A stretch of DNA of 64,000 nucleotides from a virus. Taxonomy: Duplodnaviria > Caudoviricetes. A program made the translations under genes and the position numbers. Of the stretch, positions 857 through 39,330 are shown piece after piece (the stretch's first letter is position 1; each line of letters opens with the position of its first letter). The stretch covers positions 32,001 through 96,000 of the IMG/VR virus record IMGVR_UViG_3300028591_000004, one strand, 5' to 3'. The notes beneath the pieces were generated by a model, which worked only from the letters and a program-made list of their open reading frames with translations, had not been told where the DNA came from and did not search any database.

Positions 857-872
857 AGCTATCATTCCTTTC

Positions 873-910: not shown

Positions 911-922
911 TATAAGATCTGC

Positions 923-4169: not shown

Positions 4170-4174
4170 CTTTC

Positions 4175-7453: not shown

Positions 7454-7598
7454 TGTTGGAATGGAACAAAACACATAAATGAAGAAATCTGCAAAAGGAT
7501 TTCAACGTAAAGTTGGCATTTGAAAAGGACACCCTCATTAGAGGATGTCCCTTCCAGGTGCCAAGCCTGGACCGCGCAAGCGGAGAAAGGAGTGTCCC

Positions 7599-7748
7599 AT
7601 GAGTGAGCTCAACTCAGAGCAATTTGTCTGGCTAATGACGCTAACCCCGTCTGAACGCCGACAGATAGCTCGAAAGCTTGAGACTGGCAAGTGGAAGCTC
7701 GTTTGGAATGACGAGAGTCATACCTTCGAGCTAATCCCTGTCCAGTAA
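7599..7748 (+). CDS. Small early hypothetical protein
   Basis: SD AAAGGAG before ATG 7599; hairpin plus T-tract follows. Confidence 0.6.
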   Translation: MSELNSEQFVWLMTLTPSERRQIARKLETGKWKLVWNDESHTFELIPVQ

Positions 7749-7932
7749 CTCGAGGGAGGCTGGCGTCTCGAGCGCCAGCCTTCTCCTTTTCTTGATTGTA
7801 ACATCTCGAAAGAGATGCTGTCAATCGGGTCGGTAACGGACGTTAAGCGTTACCAGTCGCAAACTCATCCGACTACACAAAGCAAGGTACGTCCTGCTGA
7901 GAGATGAGCTGGTTTCAGGAGGTACTCAAGAA

Positions 7933-8118
7933 ATGTTTAAGGCTCCGTACACCGTGTTTCTGTCTGGACTGGACAATCCGTACGACTATCTCAGAGTTAA
8001 CAGCCTTGACAAAGCTGCTGATCTCTGGGCTGGATTCCCTCTTCGTGATGTTGTCGTTCTTGACGACAACGCGAAGAAAATTCCCGTCAGCTTGCTCCGT
8101 AGCATCGCCGGAGCATGA
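7933..8118 (+). CDS. Small early hypothetical protein
   Basis: SD AGGAGGT. Confidence 0.6.
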   Translation: MFKAPYTVFLSGLDNPYDYLRVNSLDKAADLWAGFPLRDVVVLDDNAKKIPVSLLRSIAGA

Positions 8119-8133
8119 AAGGGGTGCAAGCGA

Positions 8134-8310
8134 ATGAGTTTTGAATGCGCTTCGATCTTGGTGATGATCGCATACCCGATAGTGGTGTTACTCGTGTTCT
8201 TTGGAATCCCCTGGTACTTCCGGCAAATGAAAGAGTGGAACGACCGCCATCGCTCCACTCGGTTCAAGAGCCCCAGAAGGAACAACCGGTTTAAGCATCA
8301 CAGGCGTTAA
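8134..8310 (+). CDS. Small membrane protein (58 aa, not in ORF track)
   Basis: MSFECASILVMIAYPIVVLLVFFGIPWYF... hydrophobic helix then basic tail; SD AAGGGG. Confidence 0.5.
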   Translation: MSFECASILVMIAYPIVVLLVFFGIPWYFRQMKEWNDRHRSTRFKSPRRNNRFKHHRR

Positions 8311-8389
8311 CCCTCAGGAGCATCGTCATTATAACAGACGGTGCTCCTTTTGTCTACAAAATAAAAAATGACTAACAAGGAGGTACAAC

Positions 8390-8716
8390 ATGTTCTTTTC
8401 TTATATCTTTAATAAACCTACTTCTAACCAGAAGAAGGTTTTTGAAGCAGTTTCTCCTATCATAGAAAGAGTTTTCCCTAAAGCTACTTCATTTGTCTCA
8501 TGTCAGCACAACGAAGTTATCTTCACTTGCGGATACACTGAACAAGTTTCACCTTGCGAACAGAAATGCTATCCACCAGAAGAGAACAAACTTGATCAGC
8601 TTGCTGATTACCTGAATAAACTCTCTTACTCTCAGAATAGCAAGATAAAGTTTCAAGTCTGGTGCGAAGACATCGGAGGCGCAATCCCTATGGGTATAGT
8701 AGCTTCTTGGGATTAA
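8390..8716 (+). CDS. Hypothetical protein
   Basis: SD AAGGAGGT. Confidence 0.65.
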   Translation: MFFSYIFNKPTSNQKKVFEAVSPIIERVFPKATSFVSCQHNEVIFTCGYTEQVSPCEQKCYPPEENKLDQLADYLNKLSYSQNSKIKFQVWCEDIGGAIPMGIVASWD

Positions 8717-9211
8717 TCCTTCTCCCGGCTAAGCATCCGGGTTAACAACTGCTTAATTCGAAAAGAGCACCCAGCCGCAAACTGGATGCTCTTTTCGGGT
8801 TTTACCCGAACTGGAGTGCCTCCGGTATCAACGCAGTTGCAGCTGCGAAGAGAGGAGGGGTATCCATGCCGGATATCCGCCGGATGGGCGACGATTATGT
8901 TGTCGTCCTGAGGGGGAAGATCGTTAGATTCGAGTCCTACGATGCTGCGTACGCCGCGTGGGAGGAGGACTAGCGTCTTCACCATTCACTGTTATTTTAC
9001 CATAGGCACATGGTAAATACAAGCGTTTTCTATCGCTTTGAAATAGACCCTTGCCGTGGGAAGCGGCCTTTGCGGAAGCACTCCTGCCGCATCGTATCAG
9101 TCAGGGTTGACTACCCCGATTAGGGGCATCGCCTCGTCAGCCGTCAGTTCCACGAAACGGAACATTGCTCAAATATTTTGCTCAGCGGGAAACCGCAGAA
9201 AGGAAGGTACC

Positions 9212-11635: not shown

Positions 11636-11736
11636 TCGACCGTCCTGAGCAAGACGTTAAACTGCTCAGATTCAACAGAGCTTCTGCGTGTCGGGAGCTC
11701 TTTTGAGTCTATACTCAAAAAAAAGGAGGATGACGC

Positions 11737-12027
11737 ATGGCTTTGTCTTACACTGGATTATTGTTCAAACGGATTCTGATCTCGACCGGATACACACACG
11801 GGCAAAAGAGAAGAACCGACTCTGTCCACATCATGGTCAAATGGGGCTATCCGCTTGGATCGCAGAGCACCGAGTTCGATAACGCCTTGAAGTGGCTGGA
11901 CGACAATGGGTGGATCTCTGTCAAATGGAATACCAAAGTCAAGGTATCCCGCAACACAAGCGGGATGACTGACTTCATTACCGTCACGGAGAAAGGGTAT
12001 TCTGTTGCAGCCAAATATCTTCGTTAA
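11737..12027 (+). CDS. Hypothetical protein, possible winged-helix
   Basis: SD AAGGAGG; ALKWLDDNGWI...TVTEKG pattern. Confidence 0.55.
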   Translation: MALSYTGLLFKRILISTGYTHGQKRRTDSVHIMVKWGYPLGSQSTEFDNALKWLDDNGWISVKWNTKVKVSRNTSGMTDFITVTEKGYSVAAKYLR

Positions 12028-12181
12028 ATGTTCATACACGGGAGCCCTACAGGGGCTCTCGTAATGAGCACTTAACAACATTTCAGGCCGCAAGGCCTTT
12101 TTTATATATAAGGTGAGCCATAGAGGTGAGCCATGCATTCGCCCGGTGATTGGTCATCTACTTACCAGTCCCATCTAAAAC

Positions 12182-12207
12182 GGCCAAGGCCTGCTTGATA
12201 GGGTGAG
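12182..12207 (+). promoter_or_regulatory. Class-A motif: C-AA-G hairpin plus GATAGGGTGAG
   Basis: GGCC-AA-GGCC, then GATA 9 nt after the loop. Confidence 0.45.
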
Positions 12208-12262
12208 GAGTTTGCATGCTCCTCGAATAAACCAAGCTTGTATAGCTAAGAAGGAGGAACTC

Positions 12263-12550
12263 ATGAAAAAGTTCATCGTTGTGACACTGTCGATCCTGCT
12301 CTTCGCGTCGTTTGCCTCTGCTGACGCATACCCAGCGGCGGGAGTCGTCGTTGGTTTCGAACCCGAATCGGACATCGTACTCGTCGAAGAATCCAACGGC
12401 ACAATCTGGGCCTTCGAGGGAATCGAAGACTGGCAGTTGGGAGACCTCGCCGCGCTGCTAATGGACGACTCCGGGACCGAACTCATTTTCGACGACCAAA
12501 TCGTACTGGCCCACTACACAGGTTTCTCAATCCCAAACAATCCACGTTAA
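12263..12550 (+). CDS. Small secreted/exported protein
   Basis: SD AAGGAGG; signal peptide MKKFIVVTLSILLFASFASA. Confidence 0.65.
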   Translation: MKKFIVVTLSILLFASFASADAYPAAGVVVGFEPESDIVLVEESNGTIWAFEGIEDWQLGDLAALLMDDSGTELIFDDQIVLAHYTGFSIPNNPR

Positions 12551-12568
12551 CCCAACTCTTAAGTCCCC

Positions 12569-12597
12569 TCGGCGCAAGCGCCGATCGATAAGGTGAG
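12569..12597 (+). promoter_or_regulatory. Class-A hairpin motif
   Basis: TCGGCGC-AA-GCGCCGA-tc-GATAAGGTGAG. Confidence 0.55.
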
Positions 12598-12632
12598 AAA
12601 TAGGGCAAACCGCCCACGAAAGGAGAAAACCC

Positions 12633-12884
12633 ATGAAATACAACACTATCAACGACATCGAAAACTATCGCTCCATCATCCGCAGCAACGAGGACCGCGT
12701 ACAGGCGATCGCCCGTCGTGCCTCTGCTCTCCTTAATCAGGCTAAGTATATGTCCCTGATTGAATTGGAAAATGCTTCCAGTGAAATTGCCGAGCTTCGC
12801 AAGGAGAAAGCAGAACTGGACAAGCGTACCCGTGAAGCCAAGTTGGCCATTGCGAAATTCTATGCTCCTGCGAGTATTGCCTAA
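12633..12884 (+). CDS. Coiled-coil hypothetical protein
   Basis: SD AAAGGAG. Confidence 0.65.
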   Translation: MKYNTINDIENYRSIIRSNEDRVQAIARRASALLNQAKYMSLIELENASSEIAELRKEKAELDKRTREAKLAIAKFYAPASIA

Positions 12885-13218
12885 GATTGTACCTGTCCCG
12901 GCTACTGCTGTGCGCTGGCCGGGGCAGCTGTTCTATTCAGAAAGCCCTTAGCCGTAGAGTCCTCCTCCTGCTCTGCGGCTTTTTGAATAGAGCAGAAATG
13001 CTCTCTTGGGTACACTCCTTTCTTTTGGCCGAGCCTGAGATGTCGCCTTGAGCAAGCGATTGCATGGGCTCGGTTTCCTTCTCTGACTATAAACCTTGAC
13101 GCGGTGAGAAGGCTCACTCTTTAACAGAGTGCCAATTATAGTCAAAAAATTCGATCCGGATTAAAAGTTACAGAGATGGCTCATCCGGATCTTCAAAAGA
13201 AAAAATTGGAGGTGTCCC

Positions 13219-13704
13219 ATGCGTCACGTAATTACCATCTACACAGATGGAGCCTGCAAAGGCAATCCCGGCCCCGGAGGATGGGGCGCTATCCTTGTTT
13301 GCAACGGTCATGAAAAAATTCTTCGGGGCGGTGCTGTGCACACGACCAACAACAGAATGGAACTGACCGCAGTGCTCGAAGCTATTAAGGCTCTTACTGC
13401 TCCTTGCGACGTTACCATCGTTTCCGACTCCAAGTACGTCATCATGTCCCGTGACAAGTGGCTTAAGTGGCAGAACAAAAGCCACGTTCCGAATTGGGAC
13501 CTGTGGCAGGAGCTTGTTGAAACAGGAAAAGCCAAAGGTCACATTTTCCACTACCAGCATGTAAACGGTCACAGCGGACACGTTATGAACGAACGCTGTG
13601 ACAGAATCGCAAGCGAACAGGCTTGCAAATGGTCCCATAAAGCCGCTGGAACAAATACGCTTACGATCAATGAAGCGTTAGCTATTTTGGAAGAGAGGAA
13701 ATAA
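13219..13704 (+). CDS. rnhA: Ribonuclease HI (copy 1)
   Basis: IYTDGACKGNPGPGGW, TTNNRMEL, SDSKY, HSGH..NERCD. Confidence 0.95.
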   Translation: MRHVITIYTDGACKGNPGPGGWGAILVCNGHEKILRGGAVHTTNNRMELTAVLEAIKALTAPCDVTIVSDSKYVIMSRDKWLKWQNKSHVPNWDLWQELVETGKAKGHIFHYQHVNGHSGHVMNERCDRIASEQACKWSHKAAGTNTLTINEALAILEERK

Positions 13705-13861
13705 TCATGGGAACAATTTCTAAAAATGGCAAACTGTACGGTCTTATGCCAGACGGATCCTGGAAATGGTTCTTAAACGAAAAGCAATACGAAGATGAAT
13801 ATTACGATACGGTGTTTGAGTTAAATAATTGCTTTTTCACAGAATCTCCGGAGGATTACGC

Positions 13862-14149
13862 ATGGTAGAGAATCTTATTTACATTGGTTTAACTCTGGTT
13901 TTGGTTATTGCGTCTTTCCTGTTTGGCTTAAATCTAAGTGACAAATATCACACTAAGGCAGAACAGGATAAGAAATACGCACTCGAAAAGCAATATGCGC
14001 GATTAATGGCTGGCTGTGACGCAGACGATCCGGTCCAGCCTTACGTCGCACACCCGGACAACCGTTTCTCCGTCCCTTCAGAGTTTATCGACCGCCTCGA
14101 AACAAATAAGTCCGCAACGTTACAAATCGACAAAACCAAAGCAATCTAA
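13862..14149 (+). CDS. Small membrane-anchored protein
   Basis: SD GGAGG; N-terminal hydrophobic helix. Confidence 0.55.
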   Translation: MVENLIYIGLTLVLVIASFLFGLNLSDKYHTKAEQDKKYALEKQYARLMAGCDADDPVQPYVAHPDNRFSVPSEFIDRLETNKSATLQIDKTKAI

Positions 14150-14156
14150 AAGCACC

Positions 14157-14184
14157 GGCGCAAGCGCCTGCTGGATAAGGTGAG
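14157..14184 (+). promoter_or_regulatory. Class-A hairpin motif
   Basis: GGCGC-AA-GCGCC-tgctg-GATAAGGTGAG upstream of ssb. Confidence 0.55.
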
Positions 14185-14338
14185 AATAAATACAAATTAA
14201 CTATTCTCAAGAGCAGAATCCCACGCTCGATAAACGGGGTCGCTGACAAAATCAGGGCAGACCGGGCTAAGGCCGACCGATGGGATCTCCGGAACCTATA
14301 ACTATCCAAAAACAAATTAAGAGAAGGAGACTACAAAA

Positions 14339-14761
14339 ATGAAGAACCTGAACATCGTTGGACGCATCACGAAGGACGCCACTCTGGAGACTCGCAAGAT
14401 CGGTGATACCGAGATTGCTGTGACCAATTTCAATGTGGCTGTGAACACCCGCAAGGCGACCTCTAAGAGGGACCAGAACGGCAAGCGGATCTATGACACC
14501 CTGACCGACTACTTCCGCGTTACTCTGTGGCGCGATCATGCGAAGGCCATGGTGCCTTATCTGCAGAAGGGCCGGCTGGTTTCTATCCAGGGCGACTTCG
14601 AGCTGGAAACCTGGATGGACCGGCAGAACCAGATCCACCCGGTGGCCCACTTCACTTCTCCGGCTCTGGAGCTGCTGGACGCTACCAAGACCCAGGCCGA
14701 GGAACCCGCTGAGACGACTCCTGCGCCTGCTGCGGAGCCTGATGAGCTGCCCTTCGACTAA
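14339..14761 (+). CDS. ssb: Single-stranded DNA-binding protein (copy 1)
   Basis: GRITKD, NFNVAVN, YLQKGRLVSIQG, acidic tail DELPFD. Confidence 0.92.
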   Translation: MKNLNIVGRITKDATLETRKIGDTEIAVTNFNVAVNTRKATSKRDQNGKRIYDTLTDYFRVTLWRDHAKAMVPYLQKGRLVSIQGDFELETWMDRQNQIHPVAHFTSPALELLDATKTQAEEPAETTPAPAAEPDELPFD

Positions 14762-14770
14762 TACGAATAT

Positions 14771-14806
14771 ATGCGGCCTGCCCGAAAGGGTGGGCCGCAT
14801 TTTTTT
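14771..14806 (+). terminator. Intrinsic terminator after ssb
   Basis: ATGCGGCCTGCCC-GAAA-GGGTGGGCCGCAT followed by a T run. Confidence 0.85.
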
Positions 14807-14825
14807 GTCTGTGTTTGTCAAAGCG

Positions 14826-14858
14826 TTTTCTCCGGTTTCGAAAATCGACATAATGGAG
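14826..14858 (+). promoter_or_regulatory. Class-B motif
   Basis: TTTTCTCCGGTTTCGAAAATCGACATAATGGAG. Confidence 0.65.
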
Positions 14859-15020
14859 GACTGTTAAAGTGCCCGACTTTTTCAGGTGAGCCATATTTTT
14901 TCCAGCCCCCTTTTTTCCTCCACCCCGCGTCTTCCCCAGCAGCGCGCCCCCTTACTGGTACGGTGGTGCTCGACTCCGGGCGCACACTATACAATATATA
15001 TTTTCGACGGGAGGTTTTTT

Positions 15021-15302
15021 ATGGAGACCTGTTTTAACTACTGCGACAAGGACGTTGCTTTTTTCAGCTCCGACGAGAAGCGCTGGATCAATAAAATTCG
15101 CAAACTGAAGAAGCAGCACCCCGACGAGATCAAAATCTTAGCCGAACCCGAAACCAACGACGGTTGCATTTACTGCCGTCTTCCTGCCTATACGCTCCAG
15201 ATTCGCTTCAAGAGGGAGTACACCGAGGAAGAGAGAAAAGCAATCGCAGACCGACTTACTGGCTCGAAGAAAACTGACATTTCTGAAAACACTATTGAAT
15301 AG
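15021..15302 (+). CDS. Conserved-looking phage hypothetical protein
   Basis: SD GGAGG; start re-set to METCFNY. Confidence 0.6.
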   Translation: METCFNYCDKDVAFFSSDEKRWINKIRKLKKQHPDEIKILAEPETNDGCIYCRLPAYTLQIRFKREYTEEERKAIADRLTGSKKTDISENTIE

Positions 15303-15484
15303 GCATTTTTCGATACGAATTAGCCGTTCAGTTATTCGGATGATAATTTGTTCGTCTGAATATCTGGACGAGCTAATCGCATTTAAAATCTCCTTTGTCA
15401 AAGGTGTTTTTTTACAAGCGTGACTGATTAGAACTTCGTAACTGCAAGATTTCCTCCGTGACAGGATTTATATTTGATAAAATA

Positions 15485-15517
15485 TTTTCTCCGGTTTCGA
15501 AAATTAGCATAATGGAG
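15485..15517 (+). promoter_or_regulatory. Class-B motif
   Basis: TTTTCTCCGGTTTCGAAAATTAGCATAATGGAG. Confidence 0.65.
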
Positions 15518-15547
15518 TATAAATGCATTCGCATTCCGGAAACCGAC

Positions 15548-15570
15548 ACCGTCGCAAGCGACGGTCGATA
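15548..15570 (+). promoter_or_regulatory. Class-A hairpin motif
   Basis: ACCGTCGC-AA-GCGACGGT-c-GATA upstream of tRNA-Gln. Confidence 0.55.
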
Positions 15571-15604
15571 CAAAGAAATAATCCAACTCCCGCCGTAAAC
15601 CTAT

Positions 15605-15676
15605 AGTCGCGTCGCCAAGAGGCAAGGCAACGGACTTTGACTCCGTCATTCGCACGTTCGATTCGTGCCGCGACTG
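15605..15676 (+). tRNA. tRNA-Gln(TTG)
   Basis: Acceptor AGTCGCG/CGCGACT; anticodon arm ACGGA-CTTTGAC-TCCGT; T-loop TTCGATT; CCA not encoded. Confidence 0.9.
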
Positions 15677-16189
15677 CATTCGTACATGAGCGAACATAAC
15701 CTACTGACAGGCTGACATCCTACTGTCCGTGTTGTGTGTGCATAGTTACCTTGGGGCACGTTAAACAAGTGTCGAACAGTCCAGTCTGTTCGGACACCTC
15801 CTTTCTAAGTTTGCTAAGGGTCTTGTCAGTACTGTGAAGTTTCTCTCTTCTGCTCCGGATCTGACCGTTCGTGCGGCCAGCCCTCCGCACAGACAATTGG
15901 GATAGATGGGTTGTCTGCGGATGCGGATCTGCTCGGGAAGAGAATTAAACTTTATTCGGCCGCTGTTGAAGGGCGGCCGAAAGAAAAAAGGAGTGAGAAG
16001 CGTGACTGGTTTTGTCCCGTACAGCAAGATGAGTAAGAAACAGAAAAAAGAAAAGGACAGACAGAACCGCACTCTGTGGAATATGCCGTGTATAACTAAA
16101 GTAAAACCCAGTGGTAAAATATACAGCCGGAAAGATAAATCCATGACTGGAAATCCTTATTCCCTGTATTGAGGGTGCCGCCGAATACA

Positions 16190-29171: not shown

Positions 29172-29783
29172 ATGTCTGTAGTGAATCTGACTCTCATTAC
29201 CAACCGAGGCAGGAAGGTCGACCAGGTTTCCGACAGTATGACCGTCCGGCAGATCTACGAAAAGTTCGATGTGAACTATGATGCCTGCACCAATACCATT
29301 GACTCTGTTCCGCTCCAGATTGGACAGCTGGATCAGAGCCTGCGCCAGCTCGGCTGCGGAGAATCCGTTCGTATGTCTTCTATTGTGAAGATGGACAACG
29401 CGGTTGAAGTCTTCATTGCCGGTTCTGCCGCGATTCTGAAGTCCAAGTACGATCTGGAGGATTGGAAGACTGCTCTGCGCTTCGATCCGGAGCTGGGTCT
29501 GTACAACGAAACTGACGAACCTATCTTCAAGGTGTTTGTCGAAGAAGGCCCCGGTTCTCTGAATGAAAACGGCGTTGTCTTCTCTGAAATCCCGAGTGAA
29601 GACGGGAAGGCTGTGGCGACTATCATTGTCGATCCGACTGCCGAGAACAAGCGCGAGCTTGTAAAGGCCCATCAGGGTCTTGCTCTTCTGCGGCTGAAGG
29701 AAGTCGAGGAGAATCTGGAAGAAGTTATCAACGACGCTAAGGAATCCGCAAAGGAGATCGATAAGATGGTGAAGGCCATCTAA
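29172..29783 (+). CDS. Ubiquitin-like (beta-grasp) domain fused to a C-terminal domain (putative)
   Basis: First ~77 aa have a Ubl-like pattern (LTLIT..TVRQIYEK..LDQSLRQLGC..VKMDNA); upstream of E2/JAB/E1-like genes; highly biased codons. Confidence 0.55.
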   Translation: MSVVNLTLITNRGRKVDQVSDSMTVRQIYEKFDVNYDACTNTIDSVPLQIGQLDQSLRQLGCGESVRMSSIVKMDNAVEVFIAGSAAILKSKYDLEDWKTALRFDPELGLYNETDEPIFKVFVEEGPGSLNENGVVFSEIPSEDGKAVATIIVDPTAENKRELVKAHQGLALLRLKEVEENLEEVINDAKESAKEIDKMVKAI

Positions 29784-29794
29784 AATCTCCTTGC

Positions 29795-29827
29795 AAGGGG
29801 GCGGTGTAAAATCCGTCCCCTTTTTTT
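29795..29827 (+). terminator. Terminator/attenuator after the Ubl gene
   Basis: GGGGGCGG-tgtaaaat-CCGTCCCC then T7. Confidence 0.75.
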
Positions 29828-29849
29828 AAAATTAAAGGAGATTTAAACT

Positions 29850-31277
29850 ATGTTTTCGAAAGTAATTAGTGCTCCAATTGCACCTTTAACATTCAGTTAT
29901 TTGAACAACTTTACGAGGCCGGAAGGAGAGCTGGACTGGACTTTATCTTCTCTCGGTTTTGTTTTATTCCAGCCGAGAATTCCAGATTATAGTGGGATTT
30001 GCGGAAACTATACCCGTTTTATTGAACTTGATGCAAAATTAATTGATCAAATTCAGAAAACATGTGATAGAGAAAACAAGTCAACACCAAGTTTTAACTA
30101 TCATATATGTTTGGATCTTACAGAAAGTAAGTTACAAATAATTAAAAAGGCTATGACAACGATTGGACTGAGTGAACTTGAGCCAATCGAAAGATATATA
30201 GCCCAGCAACTTCTAATGAAGGATTTTGCTGTATTTATTCACGAAGAAAGTAATAGCGCCTTTATATTTGCACCTAGTACGAACATACAGTTGTATCACT
30301 TGTGCTTGGCGTTTACCTATACATTGTTTCCAGCTATATTCAAAAATAAACCTTTGTCTGATGACGAAATCCAGGTACTGAAATCTCTTTCGCATAAAAC
30401 GGCTGATTCATTTATAAGCTTAATGCAGAAAATGCTTCAGCCTGTGCGGAGTGTTATTCTGCGCACGGAATTGGCTTCGTGCTTCAGAGGTTTCCGTCAA
30501 GGCAAAATTTCAACGGCAGAAAACCGTGTTCATGCACTGCGTTCTCAAATAGAAGCAGTTCTCGAAGATTATAGGAGAAAAGAAACAGAACTTGAAAACG
30601 CAATTGTCATGTTAGAAGGTTTAAAAGTTATCAGCGACGGAGATAGCGAAGAAGAGAAAGAAGTCATTGAATATCTTTCAAAAGAACCTCGGATTCAGAA
30701 CATCAGTTATGATAGAGGCTCTTTGATCTTTGATGTAACAACACTCCTGACGAATACAGATGTCAAGAAATATGAAAATGCGGAGAAAACTCAGGGCATT
30801 TATGATGGATATCGAATTGCAAGTACAAATGTGTTCAACAATAAAGCAAACAGAATGATGTTGATGAAAGCATTATTTGCAAATCCAAATCCTGATTTGC
30901 GGGTTAAGATCAGTGGACATATTGTTTTCCAGCCGAGCACAAACTGGATGGATGCTCCCCGTGGACAAAATATAGATATGACTGATCCGATCCTTTCCAA
31001 TTGCCTGATTAATCCGCATTATAAACTTCATGGATGTCCAGGACGAAATAGAGATCAGATTATCCAATGCCTGCAGCAGGGCGACTTGATCTCTGCTATA
31101 GAGTGTTCAATTGCGGCAACCGGAAGCGTTAACATTGGAGAAACAGACATTACTTTCAGACCGTTTGTTCAGGAGATCCTAACCAGCGATAAAAGAATTA
31201 TTCAGCGTAGCGATGGAACAGACTTAACACCTGTTGAAGCCTTGTTGTGGCTTCAGACCAAGGAGAAAACGGCATGA
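29850..31277 (+). CDS. Coiled-coil protein with C-terminal prokaryotic E2-like domain (putative)
   Basis: INPHYKLHGCPG matches the E2 xPH...C active-site layout; operon context. Confidence 0.55.
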   Translation: MFSKVISAPIAPLTFSYLNNFTRPEGELDWTLSSLGFVLFQPRIPDYSGICGNYTRFIELDAKLIDQIQKTCDRENKSTPSFNYHICLDLTESKLQIIKKAMTTIGLSELEPIERYIAQQLLMKDFAVFIHEESNSAFIFAPSTNIQLYHLCLAFTYTLFPAIFKNKPLSDDEIQVLKSLSHKTADSFISLMQKMLQPVRSVILRTELASCFRGFRQGKISTAENRVHALRSQIEAVLEDYRRKETELENAIVMLEGLKVISDGDSEEEKEVIEYLSKEPRIQNISYDRGSLIFDVTTLLTNTDVKKYENAEKTQGIYDGYRIASTNVFNNKANRMMLMKALFANPNPDLRVKISGHIVFQPSTNWMDAPRGQNIDMTDPILSNCLINPHYKLHGCPGRNRDQIIQCLQQGDLISAIECSIAATGSVNIGETDITFRPFVQEILTSDKRIIQRSDGTDLTPVEALLWLQTKEKTA

Positions 31278-32074
31278 AGAAATTAAAACTAAGCAAGCAG
31301 GATAAAGAAAAGTTATTGGCTGAATTTTCGAAGAAAATTGATAAGTATGAAGATGAACTCAAAGACACAGAGATTTCTTTCGAAAAAAATCTCAGCGAAA
31401 AAGCAAAAGAAAAAATAACAATTTATTTTACGCCTGAGGCATACATTGAGTCTCAGGCGCTGGTAAAGAATTTTGATGGCGAAGTAGGCTGGCATGGGCT
31501 AATCGAAAAGATCGATGACAATGCGTACATTGTCACAGGGATTATTGTGTATCCTCAGGTTGTAAATGGAGCAAGGACTCTTGATCCAACAAAGACAAAC
31601 AAATGGTATGAGGATCACGAAGATGTTCTGGATCTGCTACACTTTCAGGCTCATTCACATGTAAATATGTCAACCAGTCCTTCGTCTACAGATATGGAAA
31701 ACCAAAAGAATATCGTTCGGAATCTGCAAGGAGAAGGATTTCAACTCTTTCAGATATGGAATAAATCCGGAGATATTAATTCATTCCTTTATGATCTAGA
31801 CAATAATGTTATGTATGACCGTAACGATATTCAGATTGAGATCGTAAAAGAAGATAACTCGACAGTCTCTGAATTTATTCAGAAAGCGAAAGAAATGGTA
31901 GAGTCCATGCCTGTAACTGTTCCTAAGAAAACCGTCACAGCAGTAACTCCGAAATATGGCAGTTATGCATGGACAAACAATGATACCGTAGAAAATAAAT
32001 TAACTAATCCATTTTATTGGAAAGATGAAACTTCAGAAGGAGAGTGGGGCTATGAATCTCGCAAAATCATTTGA
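31274..32074 (+). CDS. JAB/MPN+ metallopeptidase
   Basis: EVGWHG plus JAMM motif HSHVNMSTSPSSTD; start re-set to ATG 31274. Confidence 0.85.
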   Translation: MKKLKLSKQDKEKLLAEFSKKIDKYEDELKDTEISFEKNLSEKAKEKITIYFTPEAYIESQALVKNFDGEVGWHGLIEKIDDNAYIVTGIIVYPQVVNGARTLDPTKTNKWYEDHEDVLDLLHFQAHSHVNMSTSPSSTDMENQKNIVRNLQGEGFQLFQIWNKSGDINSFLYDLDNNVMYDRNDIQIEIVKEDNSTVSEFIQKAKEMVESMPVTVPKKTVTAVTPKYGSYAWTNNDTVENKLTNPFYWKDETSEGEWGYESRKII

Positions 32075-32717
32075 GTTTTTTAACCCTGATTTATTCCATG
32101 AACAGATCCACATCATTGGGTGTGGATCTGTAGGTTCTACGGTAGCTGAACTGATTACAAGATTCGGCATCGAAGAAGTATGCCTATATGATTTCGATGT
32201 TGTAGAAGAACATAACCTGGTGAACCAGATGTTCACGCGAGATGATTTATATAAGCCGAAAACAGAATGCGTGAAGAACAATTTATTGAAAATAAATCCA
32301 GATATGAACATCATCTTATTTGACCGGGGATATATAGGACAAAAACTGTCAGGTTATGTTTTTCTGTGTGTAGATAAGATAGAGATAAGAAAGAGAATAG
32401 TTGAAGAAAACAAATTCAACGACACAATCAAAGCAATGTTTGATTTCAGAACCGGATTGACTGATTGCCAGCATTATGCTGCCGACTGGAGCAGGATGGA
32501 TCAAAAGAAATTGCTTTTGAGTAGAATGAATTTCACACACGAAGAAGCACAGCAAGCCGTACCAATGTCAGCTTGCAGAGTTGCGCTTTGTGTGGCACCA
32601 ACAGTAAGACTTGTATCTAATATCGGAGTCTGCAATTTTATTAATTTTGTAAAAGGAAATGGATTAAAGAATGCGATAGTTGCAGACGCATTTAATTTTA
32701 TGATCGAAGAATTTTAA
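32052..32717 (+). CDS. ThiF/MoeB (E1-like) adenylyltransferase
   Basis: IIGCGSVGS, DFDVVEEHNL.NQ, KPKTE, FLCVD; start re-set to ATG 32052. Confidence 0.92.
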   Translation: MNLAKSFEFFNPDLFHEQIHIIGCGSVGSTVAELITRFGIEEVCLYDFDVVEEHNLVNQMFTRDDLYKPKTECVKNNLLKINPDMNIILFDRGYIGQKLSGYVFLCVDKIEIRKRIVEENKFNDTIKAMFDFRTGLTDCQHYAADWSRMDQKKLLLSRMNFTHEEAQQAVPMSACRVALCVAPTVRLVSNIGVCNFINFVKGNGLKNAIVADAFNFMIEEF

Positions 32718-32718
32718 A

Positions 32719-32976
32719 TCACAATGAAAATTCGGTTATACCGGTCTGCTAATGTAAGTAACAGAAACACTTTGCCCGACAAGAAAGGGAACGCGGATCC
32801 GCCGGCCGCACGTCGAAGGCAGCCTGAATAACACCTCCATTTCTCGTGCTAAGACGAAATTTCTAGACTATGCACAAGTTTTATTACAGCTGAGAGATTT
32901 AAATCGACTGGTTTGAGATCGCTCGGGACCTGTAAGTAGCAGCTCTAGATCCAGCAACTAACTAATTAGATTGTGA
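32719..32976 (+). ncRNA. Retron-type msr-msd-like ncRNA, upstream copy
   Basis: Terminal IR TCACAAT/ATTGTGA; unpaired G32726 in CAATGAAAA; ends TTAGATTG. Confidence 0.65.
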
Positions 32977-32985
32977 GATGAAAAA

Positions 32986-34122
32986 ATGTATTACTTTACA
33001 ATAAGGCAAAATAGAAAACCAGTTCAACTAAAATTCGAAGATGTATTGTTTGGAAATGTTGTAATAAATTCATTAAATACAGAATCTGATAAGACCGGTA
33101 CCATAACCAGAGCATTAGACGAAATACCTAAAGAGTTAACTGAAAAAGTAGATATAAAATCGATTATTGAATGGTTGAAAGAATTCAATAATAAAAACAG
33201 TTCTTTGTTTGAAGCTAATAGAGAAACACTGTATAGGCATTATAAAATTCCAAAGAAAACAGGTGGATGGAGGCCCATAGATGAACCTTGTCCGGAATTG
33301 CAAAATGCATTAGGAGAATTGGCCTCTTTTCTACAAAGAGATGTTGGTGTTCTTTATCATACATCTGCATTTGCATACATAGAAGACAGATGCGTTGTAG
33401 ACGTATTGAAAAAACATGCCAAGTTTAAGAGTAATTGGTTCCTGAAAACGGATTTAAGCGGATTCTTTCCTCACACTACTCTTGAATTTACAATGAAGAT
33501 GTTAAGTAAGATCTTTCCTCTATGTGAAGTTATGAAAGATCCGGAAGGGGGAAAAGCCTTAACTAAGGCAATTTCTTTGGGGTTCTTAAACAATGGATTA
33601 CCGCAGGGAACAAAGCTTTCGCCGTGTTTGACAAATTTCATTATGATTCCAATTGACCATCGACTGGCTGGTGAATTCTCCAAGCGTAAAATGGTTTATA
33701 CAAGATATGCTGATGATATGCATATTTCAGCGCAGGAAGAGTTCCCATTTAAACAGATGGTGAAATTTATTGAAAATACTTTTAAAGAATTTAGTGCCCC
33801 GTATGAAATTAAGGATGAGAAAGTTCACTATGGAAGTGTAAAAGGGAAGAACTGGATGCTTGGCTTAATGCTGAATGGCGAGTACAAGATAACAGTAGGA
33901 TATAGAACTAAGAAATATTTTAAAGCGGCTTTGTGTAACTTTATTCTTGATACTAAGAACAATAAACCTTGGGACATTGATGATGTTCAGCATCTGTCTG
34001 GTCAGCTTTCATATTACAGGATGGTTGAAGAGAATTATTTTAATAAAATTATCAATACAGCAAATAAAAAGTGGAACGTAGATGCAGAACAAATGATGAA
34101 ATCTTATTTGAAAATAGCATAA
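32986..34122 (+). CDS. Retron-like reverse transcriptase
   Basis: IPKKTGGWRPIDEP, SAFAY, KTDLSGFFP, LPQGTKLSP, YTRYADD; 378 aa; no maturase or endonuclease domain. Confidence 0.9.
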   Translation: MYYFTIRQNRKPVQLKFEDVLFGNVVINSLNTESDKTGTITRALDEIPKELTEKVDIKSIIEWLKEFNNKNSSLFEANRETLYRHYKIPKKTGGWRPIDEPCPELQNALGELASFLQRDVGVLYHTSAFAYIEDRCVVDVLKKHAKFKSNWFLKTDLSGFFPHTTLEFTMKMLSKIFPLCEVMKDPEGGKALTKAISLGFLNNGLPQGTKLSPCLTNFIMIPIDHRLAGEFSKRKMVYTRYADDMHISAQEEFPFKQMVKFIENTFKEFSAPYEIKDEKVHYGSVKGKNWMLGLMLNGEYKITVGYRTKKYFKAALCNFILDTKNNKPWDIDDVQHLSGQLSYYRMVEENYFNKIINTANKKWNVDAEQMMKSYLKIA

Positions 34123-34126
34123 TCAT

Positions 34127-34331
34127 TGGCAATGAAAAGCTTTTGCTCTTTTGCTGTAATCAGAAGATTCGATTTGATAAAGAGTAGCTCCACATCTTGT
34201 TAAAGGCGCCGCAACATCTAAAGATGATGCGGCGCCTCCCGCAAGATGCTACGCTACTTCCAACTTATTACCTGGTTCTAAGGCCCCAGGTAAACGTTGG
34301 AAGTTTTAAACTCTTCGAATTTAGATTGCCG
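34127..34331 (+). ncRNA. Retron-type msr-msd-like ncRNA, downstream copy
   Basis: Terminal IR TGGCAAT/ATTGCCG; G34134 in CAATGAAAA; ends TTAGATTG; two long internal hairpins. Confidence 0.65.
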
Positions 34332-34332
34332 G

Positions 34333-34366
34333 ATAGAGCATTGCATTCGCAGTGCTCTATTTTTTT
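34333..34366 (+). terminator. Intrinsic terminator closing the Ubl-RT operon
   Basis: ATAGAGCATTGC-attc-GCAGTGCTCTAT plus T6. Confidence 0.85.
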
Positions 34367-34535: not shown

Positions 34536-37364
34536 ATGGGAGAGAAGAGCTATCTAAAAAATCAAGTCTATTTACCCGGTTTCAACAGTTACGATCTTTT
34601 TACTGAGCAGGAATTTGAACAGTATATGAAGATCGTAGAAGCAAAAAACGAACTGAACAGAATTGAAAAAGATCAGAAATCACTAAAACAAAGTCTTATT
34701 ACAAAAAAAAAGGAAGCACAATCCAAGTTAAATGAATTAATCAACAAGCATGATGGTATTCCCAGAGAAGTCCGACTAAAAAATGTTATTTATCATCCTG
34801 ATTCAGAAGATCAATTTCCGGCTGGAGTTACGTGGCATAATCTGAATTTTTCAAAGAAAATCTCTGAGTTTTCATCTGAGCTTACAAGAGCGATGAAGCT
34901 TGAAAGAGATTATACTTTGGATCAGATTGTTGTGAAATGGAAATCCTTGGATGTAATGCATCAGTTGATTACAGATGGATTCTATATGAAGATTCTGAAT
35001 CCGGATGGATCAACAACAAACAAACATTATCATTTTTTCACAGCATCAGCCGGTCAATTAAGACGAGATAAACTTGTCTTTATTTCCGATGAAATGTGGG
35101 AGAAAATAAAAAAAAGAATTGAATGTGGACTTCCATGGGATGTAATCAATGCTCATGGAGGTATCTGTACAAATAAATTAATGGCTTATACTGCACTACC
35201 TGGAAGTGCAACAGATGAGTGGACAGACTTTGATTTGGATCGATGCATCGTCATCAATCAATTCAAAGGCAAAGTCACTGACAGGATGATGTACATTAAC
35301 CATGATTATACATACAAAGAAGAAGTATGTACCGTTGAAATTGATCACACAGATGGATGCGGTATGATGCTCCCGTCTGTTTCGGATTTCAACTTCATGG
35401 TTAGAGGGCCATATGTCAAAGGACTGTTGTGTGTATTTGACTATTTAAAGTTCTGTGAAGAGAAAGGTGTTCGGCCTGTCATTGTCGACTATTGGGGCTT
35501 AGAACACGATCTTGTAAAAGAAAACATACAGATCATCTTCACGGAAAGCATGGTCAAAATGGCAAAATTCTATGATTCATGGCAGGATTTCAAAGACAAA
35601 TGCCGTTCATGCGGTGCAATGTTCGGCAAAATGAACTATGAAGAAGAAGAAATAGATGACACAACAGTATGTTATCAGTTTACTCAAACGCTTACGGATT
35701 TCACAGACGAGGAAATAAAAGAGTATACAAAGCGGGAACATGATCGTATCATGAATGTCACAAAAGACAAAGATACGATGATCAGAACACTGAAAGGTGA
35801 TGTGAAATCTGATAATCCTTATAAAGCAGCGTTGGCTTATTATCCGGAAATGTTATGGGAAGGATATACGAGAAGCCAGCTAAAAGACACGAGGAAGAGG
35901 ATGCTTCTCGATGCGAAATCCGGAAAGATAAGGATGCTTAATAAACGTCTGTTTGCTATTCCGGATTTATATGCGGCTTGTGAGTATTGGTTCTGTCATA
36001 TTGAAGAACCGGAAGGGCTGCTGAAGAATGGAGAAATAGCGTGCTCTGTCTTTAGAAAATATAATGAAGCTGATGTTTTAAGGAGTCCCCATTTATACTG
36101 CGAGCATCGAATTGAAAAAATTTCGCATGATCCGGAAGTGTATAAATGGTTTAATACAAATGGTGTGTACACAAGCTGTAAAGATTTAATTTCTCGCGTT
36201 TTGCAATTCGATGTTGACGGAGATCAGCTGAATGTAATAGTTGATCCGTTGTTTGTTTCCGTAGCAAAACGCAACATTGAAAAATACGATGTAATACCTC
36301 TCTTCTACGAAGCGAATAAGCCCAAAGCAGAACCCGTTACAAAAGAGTCCCTATATAACGGGTTGAAAAGAGCTCACGATTACTCAAGTGGCGGTATTAC
36401 ATCAATAGGAGAGATATCCAACATGCTCACACGGCTTTGGAATCGTGAAAATCCTGACAGAGTAGCGGCAGCATGGTTAACCATGTTCAATAATTTAACA
36501 ATTGACGCCGCTAAAACCGGGCAGCTGTCCCATTATAAAGACTACCCGGCTGTAGCCAGAAAGATTAACAAAGCCATAGGAGGGAAAAACGGTCGGTTAC
36601 CTTATTGGTTCGCTTTTTCAAAGAACGGCCGAAAAGCTCCGGCTCCGGGAAAAAAGAAACGAAAGTACCTTGCTCCCAACAATTCAACAATGAATAGAAT
36701 TTGTGCTGCTTTCAGTGACATTGGCAACATCAATCTCCACAACGCAGACATTTCACCATTTAACTGGCAGATGTTTTTATCAGAACCATGCAAAGATACG
36801 AATCCTGAAATGTGTAAAGTATTTTGCGACATGGACAACATTAACATTTCTGGGGTCATAGAGGCTAAAGATTTTGATTACTTTACCGAAAGAGAATCAA
36901 AATCGAAATATGAACTTTTAGCCAAGATGATCATCGAAGAAATGACCGACCGATTCGGTCCGCTGGAAAACTCTTATCCGTATATTGTGAAGTTTCTGTT
37001 TGCGGATAAAGCAGTTGATAAAGCGGTTCATAAGCAAATGTTCTGGAGAGTTTATGGAGACATTGCTTTAAAGAACCTGAAGCAGAATCTTAGCAACTAT
37101 AAAGTCTGTAAAAACTGTAGTATGAAATACCCCATATGGGCAGAAACCCATACCTGTATAAAAGATAGCACTGGTTTTGTAACCTGTATTGACTGCGGTG
37201 CTGTTCGTCCAAGAATGAATTCAAAACAGCAGCGCTGTGAAATCTGTCAGGATATATACAATAAAACATCAGACTCAGTCCGAAAAAGAAACAAATACAA
37301 GAAATTAAAGGAAGAGGAACAACAACGTATTACTTCCTTGGTCTCGCGCTTAGAGAAGACATAA
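34536..37364 (+). CDS. YonO-like single-subunit RNA polymerase 2
   Basis: ASAGQLR, TDGCGM, RSPHL, catalytic FDVDGDQ, IDAAKT; C-terminal Cys-rich Zn ribbons. Confidence 0.9.
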   Translation: MGEKSYLKNQVYLPGFNSYDLFTEQEFEQYMKIVEAKNELNRIEKDQKSLKQSLITKKKEAQSKLNELINKHDGIPREVRLKNVIYHPDSEDQFPAGVTWHNLNFSKKISEFSSELTRAMKLERDYTLDQIVVKWKSLDVMHQLITDGFYMKILNPDGSTTNKHYHFFTASAGQLRRDKLVFISDEMWEKIKKRIECGLPWDVINAHGGICTNKLMAYTALPGSATDEWTDFDLDRCIVINQFKGKVTDRMMYINHDYTYKEEVCTVEIDHTDGCGMMLPSVSDFNFMVRGPYVKGLLCVFDYLKFCEEKGVRPVIVDYWGLEHDLVKENIQIIFTESMVKMAKFYDSWQDFKDKCRSCGAMFGKMNYEEEEIDDTTVCYQFTQTLTDFTDEEIKEYTKREHDRIMNVTKDKDTMIRTLKGDVKSDNPYKAALAYYPEMLWEGYTRSQLKDTRKRMLLDAKSGKIRMLNKRLFAIPDLYAACEYWFCHIEEPEGLLKNGEIACSVFRKYNEADVLRSPHLYCEHRIEKISHDPEVYKWFNTNGVYTSCKDLISRVLQFDVDGDQLNVIVDPLFVSVAKRNIEKYDVIPLFYEANKPKAEPVTKESLYNGLKRAHDYSSGGITSIGEISNMLTRLWNRENPDRVAAAWLTMFNNLTIDAAKTGQLSHYKDYPAVARKINKAIGGKNGRLPYWFAFSKNGRKAPAPGKKKRKYLAPNNSTMNRICAAFSDIGNINLHNADISPFNWQMFLSEPCKDTNPEMCKVFCDMDNINISGVIEAKDFDYFTERESKSKYELLAKMIIEEMTDRFGPLENSYPYIVKFLFADKAVDKAVHKQMFWRVYGDIALKNLKQNLSNYKVCKNCSMKYPIWAETHTCIKDSTGFVTCIDCGAVRPRMNSKQQRCEICQDIYNKTSDSVRKRNKYKKLKEEEQQRITSLVSRLEKT

Positions 37365-37432: not shown

Positions 37433-37852
37433 TTGAGGGTTACAAAACAGCTCGACGGCAAGCCGTCGAAGAATCTCCCGAAAATCTTAGTAACGGAGCC
37501 GACTGGCCACGACGACCTTTTAAATTTCTTATCAGTATATCAAACGCAGGATTATTTTAAAGGACCTCACTATCATCCGGAAGGTGCACTTTGCTGGTAT
37601 GCCTGTAACAAGTACGGTGAACCTTCCGGAGAAGTGATTTTTGCCAGAAAAGTACCTGTGAAAGAACTGATGTGGTCGTTTTCGTTTAAGAAAAAATACA
37701 GAATGGAAGGATTTAATCGATCGGTTAAATTCAAGAATGTATTTTCAAGAGAGCCCCGTTATGAAGATTATAAAACTTTAAAGCCGAGGTTATATCAATC
37801 GGTGAAAAAAACTGGGAAAGGAAAGAAAAAGAATGGCAACAAAAACAGATGA
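37433..37852 (+). CDS. Hypothetical protein
   Basis: TTG start after AAGGA (start uncertain). Confidence 0.55.
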   Translation: MRVTKQLDGKPSKNLPKILVTEPTGHDDLLNFLSVYQTQDYFKGPHYHPEGALCWYACNKYGEPSGEVIFARKVPVKELMWSFSFKKKYRMEGFNRSVKFKNVFSREPRYEDYKTLKPRLYQSVKKTGKGKKKNGNKNR

Positions 37853-38582
37853 TGTGTATGGCATTCTGAGAGTTGTTGATGTCAGCGGTCATGTCGAAGA
37901 AAAAGACACTGGCAAAGCGAAGCTGAAATATCTCTCCTGGGCATGGGCTTGGGACGAGGTTCGAAAACGCTATCCGAGCGCCAACTACACAATCGTCAAA
38001 AACGAACAGGGCCTTCCATATTTCATTGATCCTGCAATGGGAATTATGGTTTATACCACGGTTACCATTGAAAACGAAACACATGAAATGTGGCTGCCGG
38101 TCATGGACGGTGCCAACAATCCAATGAAGATGGAACCTTATGACATTCAGATGTCTTGGGGAAAGAAGCATGTTAATGCTGCAACAATGTTCGACATCAA
38201 CAAGACAGTTATGAGGTGTCTGACAAAGAATCTTGCGATGTTTGGTATCGGCCTTGCCCTGTATGCCGGGGAGGATCTGTTTGACGACACAGAGGGCAAC
38301 AAAGGCGATGCTGCGACAAAGAAAGCTGAGTCAAAATCGGAAGCGAAAGTCACAGCGAAGAAAGCTGAGGCCGAAAACAAGAAGGCTGAACCAGCACTGG
38401 GTCTTACAGAGGTTATCAAAGAACTCGATTTCAAAGTACAGGCAATGACAAAAAATATGACAGACGAACAGAAGAATGCGCTTGCAGAAACAATTAAACA
38501 GAAGTGCGGCATTAAGAACTATCGCATGTGTACAGATGTAAATGCGTTGAATAGTTTGCTTGCCGTGCTGCAGGCTGCATAA
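37833..38582 (+). CDS. Sak/Rad52-like single-strand annealing protein (DUF1071 type)
   Basis: LKYLSWAWAW, MWLPVMD, DINKTVMRCLTKNLAMFGIGL.LYAGEDL. Confidence 0.88.
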   Translation: MATKTDDVYGILRVVDVSGHVEEKDTGKAKLKYLSWAWAWDEVRKRYPSANYTIVKNEQGLPYFIDPAMGIMVYTTVTIENETHEMWLPVMDGANNPMKMEPYDIQMSWGKKHVNAATMFDINKTVMRCLTKNLAMFGIGLALYAGEDLFDDTEGNKGDAATKKAESKSEAKVTAKKAEAENKKAEPALGLTEVIKELDFKVQAMTKNMTDEQKNALAETIKQKCGIKNYRMCTDVNALNSLLAVLQAA

Positions 38583-38984: not shown

Positions 38985-39047
38985 CAACTGCTAAGAAAAG
39001 TAGCTGCTGATGTAATTAACATAAACAATTTGAGCATATCTCAAACA

Positions 39048-39116
39048 CTTTATCTATTTGAAACTTAATTAGAAACGGTCAAGACCCGTTTCAAATTAAG
39101 TTACAAATAGATAAAG
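39048..39116. repeat. 31-bp inverted repeat (candidate origin cruciform)
   Basis: Arms pair fully apart from two A/A mismatches 10 bp apart; between ssb and primase-helicase. Confidence 0.75.
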
Positions 39117-39330
39117 AGACAAATAAAATCATAGATTTTATTAGTTAGCAGTACGCATTATGATAAGCATTGGGAAACTATTATAATAATTATATAAAAC
39201 TATCAATGCTCTATCAGGTGTAATCGATAGAAAAGCGTAAACTATACCGAAGCGCAGCGACCATTCCAACTTAGGGTCGCTGCGCTTATTATAAATTAAA
39301 AATTTAGATAATGCGTAAGGAGATAAAATA

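Follow-up and report, generated by a model that had tools for sequence, protein, structure and literature searches.

Retrons and bacterial ubiquitin-like systems are recent additions to prokaryotic immunity, and they have so far been described as separate host weapons. The locus considered here raises the question of whether a virus can carry the two as one machine. It lies in a window of 64,000 nucleotides, by which we mean the whole stretch of DNA that was analysed, comprising bases 32001-96000 of the 150,780-bp IMG/VR virus record IMGVR_UViG_3300028591_000004, which has direct terminal repeats and is rated 100% complete. Within this window, a block on the + strand encodes, in this order, a ubiquitin-like modifier (Ubl) fused to a second domain (D2), an E2-like protein, a JAB/JAMM metallopeptidase, a minimal E1, a first retron-like non-coding RNA (ncRNA1), a retron-like reverse transcriptase (RT), a second such RNA (ncRNA2) and a terminator (Table 1). 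We interpret this block as a conserved, mobile phage module with two arms, one of them a Ubl conjugation cascade and the other the retron-like RT together with the RNAs that would serve as its templates. The ubiquitin-like protein-tagging kit is probably complete, and we lean towards the reading that a retron-like sensor or regulator is coupled to a conjugation effector similar to that of Bil operons, and that the pair is used in phage-phage or phage-host conflict.

Table 1. Features of the block and of its surroundings, with positions counted from the first base of the window
Feature	Position	Strand	Remarks
up161, open reading frame (ORF) of 161 aa	28593..29078	+	neighbour upstream of the block, not a core part
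ORF1	29172-29783	+	203 aa
Ubl domain of ORF1, residues 1-77	29172..29402	+	ends in conserved K-M-D-N-A
D2 and C-terminal long helix of ORF1, residues 78-203	29403..29783	+	
Hairpin and T run behind ORF1, terminator-like or attenuator	29795..29832	+	10 pairs, 7 of them G-C
ORF2, E2-like	29850..31277	+	475 aa; N-terminal alpha/beta domain, 76-residue helix, C-terminal UBC/RWD-like domain with N388-P-H390...C396
C-termini of ORF2 and RT	31266-31277 and 34111-34122		
JAB/JAMM metallopeptidase	31274..32074	+	ORF opens at 31247; likely start ATG 31274
Minimal E1, single ThiF-type adenylation domain	32052..32717	+	221-230 aa; ORF from 32025; likely start ATG 32052
ncRNA1, retron-like	32719..32976	+	5' arm TCACAAT, G, internal region, TTAG, 3' arm ATTGTGA
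Retron-like RT	32986..34122	+	378 aa; YADD box
ncRNA2, second retron-like unit	34126..34332	+	arm TTGGCAAT, G, internal region, TTTAG, 3' arm ATTGCCGG
Intrinsic terminator closing the block	34331..34366	+	14-pair stem and T run; conserved in relatives
Sak-like annealing protein gene	37833-38582		
Two tandem units with the same arm-G...TTAG-arm frame	38987-39152, 39152-39317	+	found by pattern scan

The linkage between the kit and the RT is not a matter of chance. After duplicates had been merged, 83 distinct versions of the related loci (numbered with L below) were available, and the order E2-like, JAB, E1, RT was found in 72 of them, 66 with all five families and 6 with ORF2, JAB, E1 and RT. 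The RT stood by itself in 5 of the 83, all of them cut within about 1.2 kb of the contig or locus end. In ten loci found by ORF2 alignment, the order up161-ORF1-ORF2-JAB-E1-RT is kept over all the DNA available; a hand-made degenerate DNA pattern for P-N-P-H-[LF]-x-x-[HY]-x-C-x-G, used to find further loci, gave 21 true ones from viral contigs of 30-150 kb, and a search seeded with single distant relatives of ORF2 returned no loci. At least 525 relatives of the RT are present in IMG/VR, and among the best 80 (40-76% identity) E1 lies directly upstream wherever the upstream DNA suffices, nearly all of them with ORF2, JAB and ORF1 or D2 as well. The block gave no megablast match among the GenBank phages, no cultured phage being similar at the DNA level, and its sole tblastn match there was MT835544, a distant, temperate-type human-gut contig of 35 kb with an integrase. 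This contig carries D2 (141 aa), Ubl (78 aa), ORF2, JAB, E1, one ncRNA and the RT, at 22-48% protein identity to the window (RT 38%, ORF2 22%) and between different flanks.

One lineage has the kit without the RT. A 127,916-bp record that is 98% complete (L031/L032) encodes two D2-Ubl pairs, an ORF2 of 606 aa, JAB and E1, and no RT was found anywhere in it; the kit can therefore stand alone. The converse case, an RT of this clade that lacks the kit, was not encountered among the loci surveyed, and such an asymmetry fits a self-sufficient effector with a dependent sensor. In one subgroup of 28 loci, an ORF of 269 aa was noticed between E1 and RT (for example L069:6827-7636). A PHROG with the annotation Hoc-like head decoration is matched by its first 126 residues (E = 3e-11), Pfam has no match for it, and these loci may have gained it as a further part of the module.

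With regard to the single genes, the original prediction, drawn from the letters of the window alone, had named four on the + strand, and all four lie where it had put them. It had taken the first for a Ubl gene, and a beta-grasp Ubl is indeed present, as one part of a Ubl-D2 fusion. The coiled coil and the NPH....C motif that it had seen in ORF2 correspond to a long helix in the model and to N388, H390 and C396 in the alignment, and its JAMM motif is intact, as E70, H127-S-H129, S137 and D140 of JAB are invariant in the relatives. The ThiF/E1 call agrees with Pfam ThiF (E = 6e-21). The last three genes do overlap, since the JAB start shares an ATGA at 31274 with the ORF2 stop and the E1 ATG at 32052 sits 23 nt inside JAB. 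The first ncRNA was likewise correctly placed 2 nt past the E1 stop (stop ending at 32717, 5' arm at 32719), and the terminator expected near 34333 was located at 34331-34362.

The AlphaFold2 (AF2) model of ORF1 (mean pLDDT, the per-residue model confidence, 85.5) falls into three parts, in which residues 1-72 build a beta-beta-alpha-beta-alpha-beta domain, residues 73-78 a flexible linker, and D2 a second beta-rich domain followed by a 40-residue helix. Foldseek aligned ORF1 with the Ubl domains of SUMO, Smt3, ISG15 and ubiquilin at a target-length TM score of about 0.6-0.7 and a root-mean-square deviation of 2.4-3.0 A, and the modelled Ubl has a clear beta-grasp fold. ORF1 has no match in Pfam, NCBIfam, PADLOC or PHROGs, and its family profile reached E 0.14 at best against PDB sequences, which is no meaningful match. 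For D2, the structure, feature and profile searches gave no fold, feature or family match, and it accompanies the Ubl everywhere, including in L001 and in the RT-less L031.

The linker motif K-M-D-N-A is nearly invariant among the relatives, and they mostly split the halves of ORF1 into separate genes in the reversed order, D2 and then Ubl (53 loci); the fused form of the window was found in 23 loci. Most of the stand-alone Ubls terminate exactly at ...V-V-K-A-D-N-A, and some have one to three residues more (...DNAA, ...DSAVA, ...DGAAI), the Ubl of L001 ending in ...KMDNALAA. By sequence, ends of the form K-x-D-[NSG]-A follow the pattern of ubiquitin-type modifiers, in which an active C-terminal Ala would sometimes be masked by a short tail. 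In the window, the tail behind Ala77 is the entire D2 domain, and because natural stand-alone Ubls end at ...KADNA, the Ubl-D2 fusion probably needs a cut after Ala77, presumably made by JAB. Duplication of modifier genes recurs: four ORF1-type genes (D2, Ubl-D2, Ubl-D2, Ubl) stand in a row upstream of ORF2 in L111:732-3141, and L031 has its two D2-Ubl pairs.

ORF2 is E2-like on moderate evidence, that is, on weak structural matches and on context. Its model (mean pLDDT 90.6) consists of an alpha/beta domain (residues 1-180), a single helix (186-261) and a C-terminal domain (265-475), and the last of these runs from one helix through two strands, a two-helix insert, two further strands and the loop bearing N388-P-H390 and C396 to three helices, an order which we take to be that of the UBC fold. 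In that fold the catalytic Cys stands behind an HPN motif. By structure, Atlas lists weak matches to RWD-domain clusters (TM 0.48 and 0.39) and to a ThiF cluster of 540 aa, and its feature search gave a cluster in which 15% of the members carry Prok-E2_D (score 0.89), a lead only. C396 is kept in 83 of 83 distinct ORF2 sequences, and N388, H390 and G398 in at least 95%, and an alignment reaching down to about 20% identity leaves R43, N388, H390, C396 and E431 invariant. The family is large, with 1,572 clusters at 50% identity (E below 0.001), and is without a name or a model, as neither Pfam, NCBIfam, PADLOC nor PHROGs held anything for ORF2 and its profile found nothing among PDB sequences. 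Shorter, stand-alone relatives of the E2 domain were sought, and one fragment was all that was found.

The JAB start at ATG 31274 is preceded by a good ribosome-binding site. The active site of JAB is intact, its family profile matching Rpn11 (E = 1e-3) with the active-site residues aligned, and PADLOC JAB is matched at E = 5e-3. The E1 family profile finds the active adenylation domain of Uba1 and UBA5 as its best matches (E about 1e-15), followed by ThiF-type proteins, MccB, TcdA, MoeB, ThiF and Cap2. A G-C-G-x-x-G nucleotide loop and one Cys are conserved in 76 of 76 E1 sequences and Asp108 in at least 95%. This Cys is residue 175 when counted from ATG 32052 and residue 184 when counted from ATG 32025 (Cys184 below), and its distance from the nucleotide loop would suit a crossover-loop cysteine. 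Inserts of 0.5-2.3 kb between JAB and E1 were also noticed in several loci (L088:4580-6944; L025:1008-1871; L075, L076 and L082).

The kit was compared with known bacterial systems. Bil operons (BilABCD) hold a Ubl-E2-JAB-E1 gene set and no E3 (PMC11601596), and the corresponding set without E3, with a beta-grasp Ubl, a candidate E2 and a JAB/JAMM protein, is found here. The Bil E1, however, has the architecture IAD-AAD-CYS, whereas the present one is a single adenylation domain; the E2-like protein of the window has an extra N-terminal domain and a coiled coil, with no detectable similarity to E2 models; the Bil Ubl ends in Gly, while the present Ubl ends in D-N-A; and the extra partner D2, the phage carrier and the junction with an RT and ncRNAs have no part in Bil. 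In type I Bub (BubAB, BubCD, BubE), the JAB domain of BubCD cuts the BubAB fusion and exposes the Ubl C-terminus, and the E1 is minimal and homodimeric (PMC11601596), so that both the predicted JAB cut of a Ubl fusion and the minimal, probably homodimeric E1 have their likeness there. The Ubl of the window is nevertheless fused to D2 and not to E2, its JAB and E1 come from two genes, Cys takes the place of the Ser of type I Bub as the candidate for catalysis, and Pfam detected no DUF6527 (BubE) protein in the block, which thus does not class as type I Bub. The PRTRC cassette (NCBIfam TIGR03735-03742) is also a mobile-element cassette with a ThiF-like E1; its models gave the present E1 18.2 bits against a cut-off of 144.75 bits and did not match ORF1, ORF2, JAB or 45 ORF2 relatives, so the block is no member of it either.

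The second arm resembles a retron. Retrons consist of an RT, an msr-msd ncRNA and an effector, in 13 types, and they are defined by the RT motifs NAXXH (region X) and VTG (region Y), terminal inverted repeats and a branching G (Mestre et al. 2020, PMC7736814). The best profiles of the present RT are those of retron RTs (type II-A, St85 family): PADLOC RT_II-A matches at E = 1.7e-44, and NCBIfam retron St85 gives 160 bits, which is under its 235-bit cut-off. Pfam RVT_1 is also matched, and the retron models score far above those of the Group II intron, Drt2 and Drt3. The two retron motifs are altered, and can be matched by position only, to x-x-K-K-H for NAXXH, with an invariant H144 before RT3, and to T303-V-G305 in the C-terminal part for VTG; H and G, the residues that are most conserved according to that paper, have counterparts, while the N and the V-T order differ. 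As in retrons, a conserved set of accessory genes adjoins the RT. Here, in difference from retrons, that set is a Ubl conjugation cascade of four to five genes, none of the PADLOC retron partner models matches the accessory genes, two ncRNAs surround the RT and two more lie about 5 kb away, and the carrier is a phage.

Both gaps around the RT, of 268 nt from E1 to RT and of 210 nt from RT to a 3' end in the terminator, share one frame, in which a 5' arm is followed by G, a run starting with AA, internal hairpins, TTAG and the complementary 3' arm, so that each ncRNA is closed by terminal inverted repeats as in retrons. In an alignment of seven sequences the arm stem of ncRNA1 is paired in 49 of 49 cells, with compensatory changes in 3 of the 7 pairs; this covariation was equalled by 3 of 500 shuffles, and all slid registers were far worse. 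L001 keeps the frame of ncRNA1 with a wholly different arm of 13 bp. The G directly after the 5' arm, which is predicted to be the branching G, does not vary within the alignment, and each of the four units of the window has it. The minimum free energy of ncRNA2 is -82.6 kcal/mol (z = -8.4 against shuffles), and Rfam has no match for the ncRNAs. The two tandem units further downstream, at 38987-39317, are candidates, since the arm-G...TTAG-arm pattern has about five chance hits per strand of the window and is unspecific by itself. Taken as a whole, the RT and the ncRNAs read as a retron-like module for which production of multicopy single-stranded DNA (msDNA) is predicted. As a further observation, small residues are frequent at the C-termini of ORF2 and of the RT in this subfamily (...KTA, ...TAA, ...KIA, ...RVA, ...LVG), resembling the ...DNA of the Ubl, which may be chance or may mark further substrates.

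On the + strand, no terminator-like site of any strength was found between 29822 and 34331, and ORF2 through ncRNA2 can therefore be one transcript. The original prediction had described the whole operon as transcriptionally joined to the RT, which holds from ORF2 to the RT; ORF1 is set apart by the terminator-like hairpin behind it (29795-29822), which that prediction did not mention. A comparable GC-rich hairpin with a T run stands at the same place in six relatives. Its flanks are an anti-Shine-Dalgarno ATCTCCT just after the ORF1 stop and the Shine-Dalgarno sequence AAGGAGAT of ORF2, and the paired flanks ATCTCC/GGAGAT co-vary to GTCTCC/GGAGAC in L003 and L009. In our reading the hairpin is an attenuator, by which more Ubl than enzyme would be made. 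Apart from this, ATCTCCT (within 29784-29850) is complementary to the ribosome-binding site of ORF2 and possibly masks it, and the arrangement suggests that ribosomes finishing ORF1 would relieve the masking.

A hint of expression comes from the contigs of four RNA libraries, which belong to three studies. Only ORF1 has coverage in every one of the four, and one contig spans the hairpin. In the best run, contig depth peaks in the ncRNA1 bins. A 232-nt metatranscriptomic contig (32735-32966) lies wholly within ncRNA1, and in another run of the same sample the depth at ncRNA1 exceeds that of the genes beside it 4-10 times. This depth fits an abundant small RNA or msDNA.

From the folds, motifs, gene order and ncRNA architecture that were observed, we infer the biochemical steps and the direction of control. 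ORF1 would be overproduced because the hairpin and T run attenuate transcription into the enzyme genes. JAB would cut the Ubl-D2 precursor after Ala77 of K-M-D-N-A, and the minimal, probably homodimeric E1 would adenylate the exposed C-terminus, perhaps holding the Ubl on Cys184, before it is handed to Cys396 in the E2-like domain of ORF2. With no E3, the choice of target may fall to the N-terminal domain and coiled coil of ORF2 together with D2. The RT would copy the ncRNAs into msDNA, and the RT-msDNA complex would sense or gate the cascade, which would then act as the effector arm of a retron, likely during infection and against rival phages or host defence proteins. The RT-msDNA is assigned the part of sensor and the cascade that of effector because of the presence asymmetry described above and of retron logic, in which sensing was proposed to be the task of an RT-ncRNA module and response that of the associated protein (Mestre et al., PMC7736814). 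The original prediction had already proposed a conjugation pathway that may be the effector of the RT-msDNA complex or be controlled by it, and had named a sporadic RT in relatives, or a lack of beta-grasp and UBC folds in the first two proteins, as observations that would tell against it. Neither point told against it, as the RT follows the E2-like, JAB and E1 genes in most loci and the ORF1 fold is clear, and its proposal is to that extent supported in part.

Bolder versions can be formulated. Tentatively, and with somewhat less than even confidence, the block may be viewed as a fourteenth kind of retron, carried by a phage, whose effector is a Ubl cascade and not a toxin and in which reverse-transcribed DNA gates or directs covalent tagging. 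The four units might yield four different msDNAs, each tuning the cascade to a different trigger or target, and in the boldest version the Ubl would be joined to the RT-msDNA particle itself.

Several observations weigh against a sensor coupled to a conjugation effector. The Ubl ends in Ala, not in Gly-Gly; no E2-family sequence model matches ORF2 or 45 diverse relatives; and the alignments to solved E1s end at about residue 126, so that the crossover-loop position of Cys184 is tentative. On the RNA side, ncRNA1 folds no better than shuffled sequence (z = -0.1), and the strict ncRNA pattern matches only 17 of 84 distinct upstream gaps and is unsuited to detecting the unit in distant relatives. 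As contigs from the RNA libraries may in part derive from DNA and cannot rank expression, the expression evidence is only a hint. Finally, co-inheritance within one phage lineage inflates the locus counts.

The main rival reverses the direction of control, the cascade tuning the polymerase, and we hold it to be rather unlikely. It supposes that the kit controls the RT in the way that Cap2/Cap3 control the CD-NTase of type II CBASS: attachment of the Ubl, either to the RT or to RT-bound D2, would prime or tune msDNA synthesis, JAB would reverse this, and the msDNAs would be the output, for example as decoys or as recombination donors near the Sak-like protein and a single-stranded DNA-binding protein. 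Type II CBASS likewise sets E1/E2 activities and a JAB as a reversible pair beside a nucleotidyltransferase, and the present E1 matches the PADLOC CBASS E1-E2 models (E = 3e-16) and the NCBIfam 6A-MBL cap2_3 model. Moreover, the Pfam, PADLOC and PHROG scans showed no obvious toxic effector domain in the block, and the four ncRNA units lie within a replication and recombination region that encodes the Sak-like annealing protein. Against these points, CBASS conjugates the C-terminus of the CD-NTase itself, whereas the block has a dedicated Ubl with its own conserved C-terminus, and the persistence of the kit without an RT in one nearly complete record is hard to explain if regulation of the RT were its sole role. 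The block further differs in having no E2-E1 fusion and an RT as its polymerase, and no CD-NTase domain was found in it with Pfam or PADLOC, so that it does not belong to type II CBASS.

A distinctly less probable alternative is counter-defence, in which JAB, E1 and the E2-like protein would undo or hijack Ubl-type immunity of the host, either Bil or the priming by CBASS Cap2, and the msDNAs would serve as decoys for the host's nucleic-acid sensors, the two arms having a common purpose without being one machine. The neighbouring genes, which are early genes and genes of DNA metabolism in a large, terminally repeated phage genome, would suit such a role, as would the intact JAB active site, given that Bil and CBASS depend on conjugation that JAB can reverse. 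A lone isopeptidase, however, would need no Ubl, D2, E1 and E2-like partners of its own, all of which are strictly conserved, and the same order and tight spacing in a temperate-type contig point to one machine.

That the two arms are unrelated accessory modules, neighbours merely by co-inheritance in one phage lineage, appears very improbable. Most loci do come from related large phages, in which linkage inflates the counts, and the block tolerates inserts, namely the 269-aa ORF between E1 and RT in its 28 loci and, elsewhere, stretches of 0.9-2.3 kb that part JAB from E1. Nevertheless, the block is intact in L001 despite different flanks and 22-48% protein identity; the flanks turn over while the block stays, the genes up161, p942 and p139 being common only to close relatives; and there is no terminator between E1 and RT, the ncRNA beginning directly behind the E1 stop. 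Sulfur-carrier or peptide-nucleotide chemistry of the ThiS/ThiF, MoaD/MoeB or MccB type in place of protein conjugation is hardly tenable, for although MccB is the best solved match of the single E1 sequence (E = 7e-12), ThiF, MoeB and MoaD appear among the sequence and fold matches and an Asn adjoins the end of the Ubl motif, the Ubl ends in ...D-N-A without Gly-Gly, no ThiG, ThiH or MoaE was found among the neighbours scanned (the original prediction had argued from an absence of ThiS/ThiG and molybdopterin genes nearby), JAB and the Cys-bearing E2-like protein are always present, and the E1 family profile ranks Uba1 and UBA5 above MccB, ThiF and MoeB. MccB-type chemistry needs a terminal Asn, as in microcin C, and the MccB-like reading was rejected because the Asn of the Ubl end is not invariant, becoming Ser or Gly in several lineages.

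In a full-text literature search, no paper was found in which a retron, or an RT like that of a retron, is linked with a Ubl/E1/E2/JAB set. This study adds the Ubl C-terminus, D2 and the two ways in which its gene is arranged, the single invariant cysteine of E1 and that of ORF2, the putative attenuator hairpin, the lineage that lacks the RT and the failed PRTRC match. A retron-type RT and a Ubl kit are here one conserved, widespread unit carried by viruses, and if the coupling is functional, it would link the sensing of nucleic acids by RT products to covalent protein tagging, represent a new class of retron effector and mean that phages themselves use ubiquitin-like conjugation. Because the cassette is small (about 5 kb), with clear catalytic residues and a predicted Ubl cleavage site, it's directly testable in a laboratory strain.

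As to the carrier, the stretch is present in DNA and RNA runs of sheep gut and other animal gut metagenomes, and the carrier is an uncultured large phage of about 150 kb from sheep gut. Phage genes surround the block, among them those for a DNA polymerase, a primase-helicase, the Sak-like annealing protein and an exonuclease. Upstream, up161 is kept only in close relatives (by tblastn; 5 loci by phmmer) and has no match in Pfam, PHROG or PADLOC. The first part of the window (1-16000) differs in composition, with a G+C content of 0.43-0.53 against 0.35-0.45 elsewhere and ORFs mostly on the minus strand, yet it belongs to the same virus record. Downstream of the RT lies the gene for a protein of 942 aa (p942; 34536-37364, phrog_8308), which is interrupted in some relatives, its homologues being cut by inserts of about 1 kb at exact query junctions (L003:16486-17478; L004:11926-12926 and 13750-14695); such exact interruptions of a conserved phage gene point to introns or inteins that are mobile.

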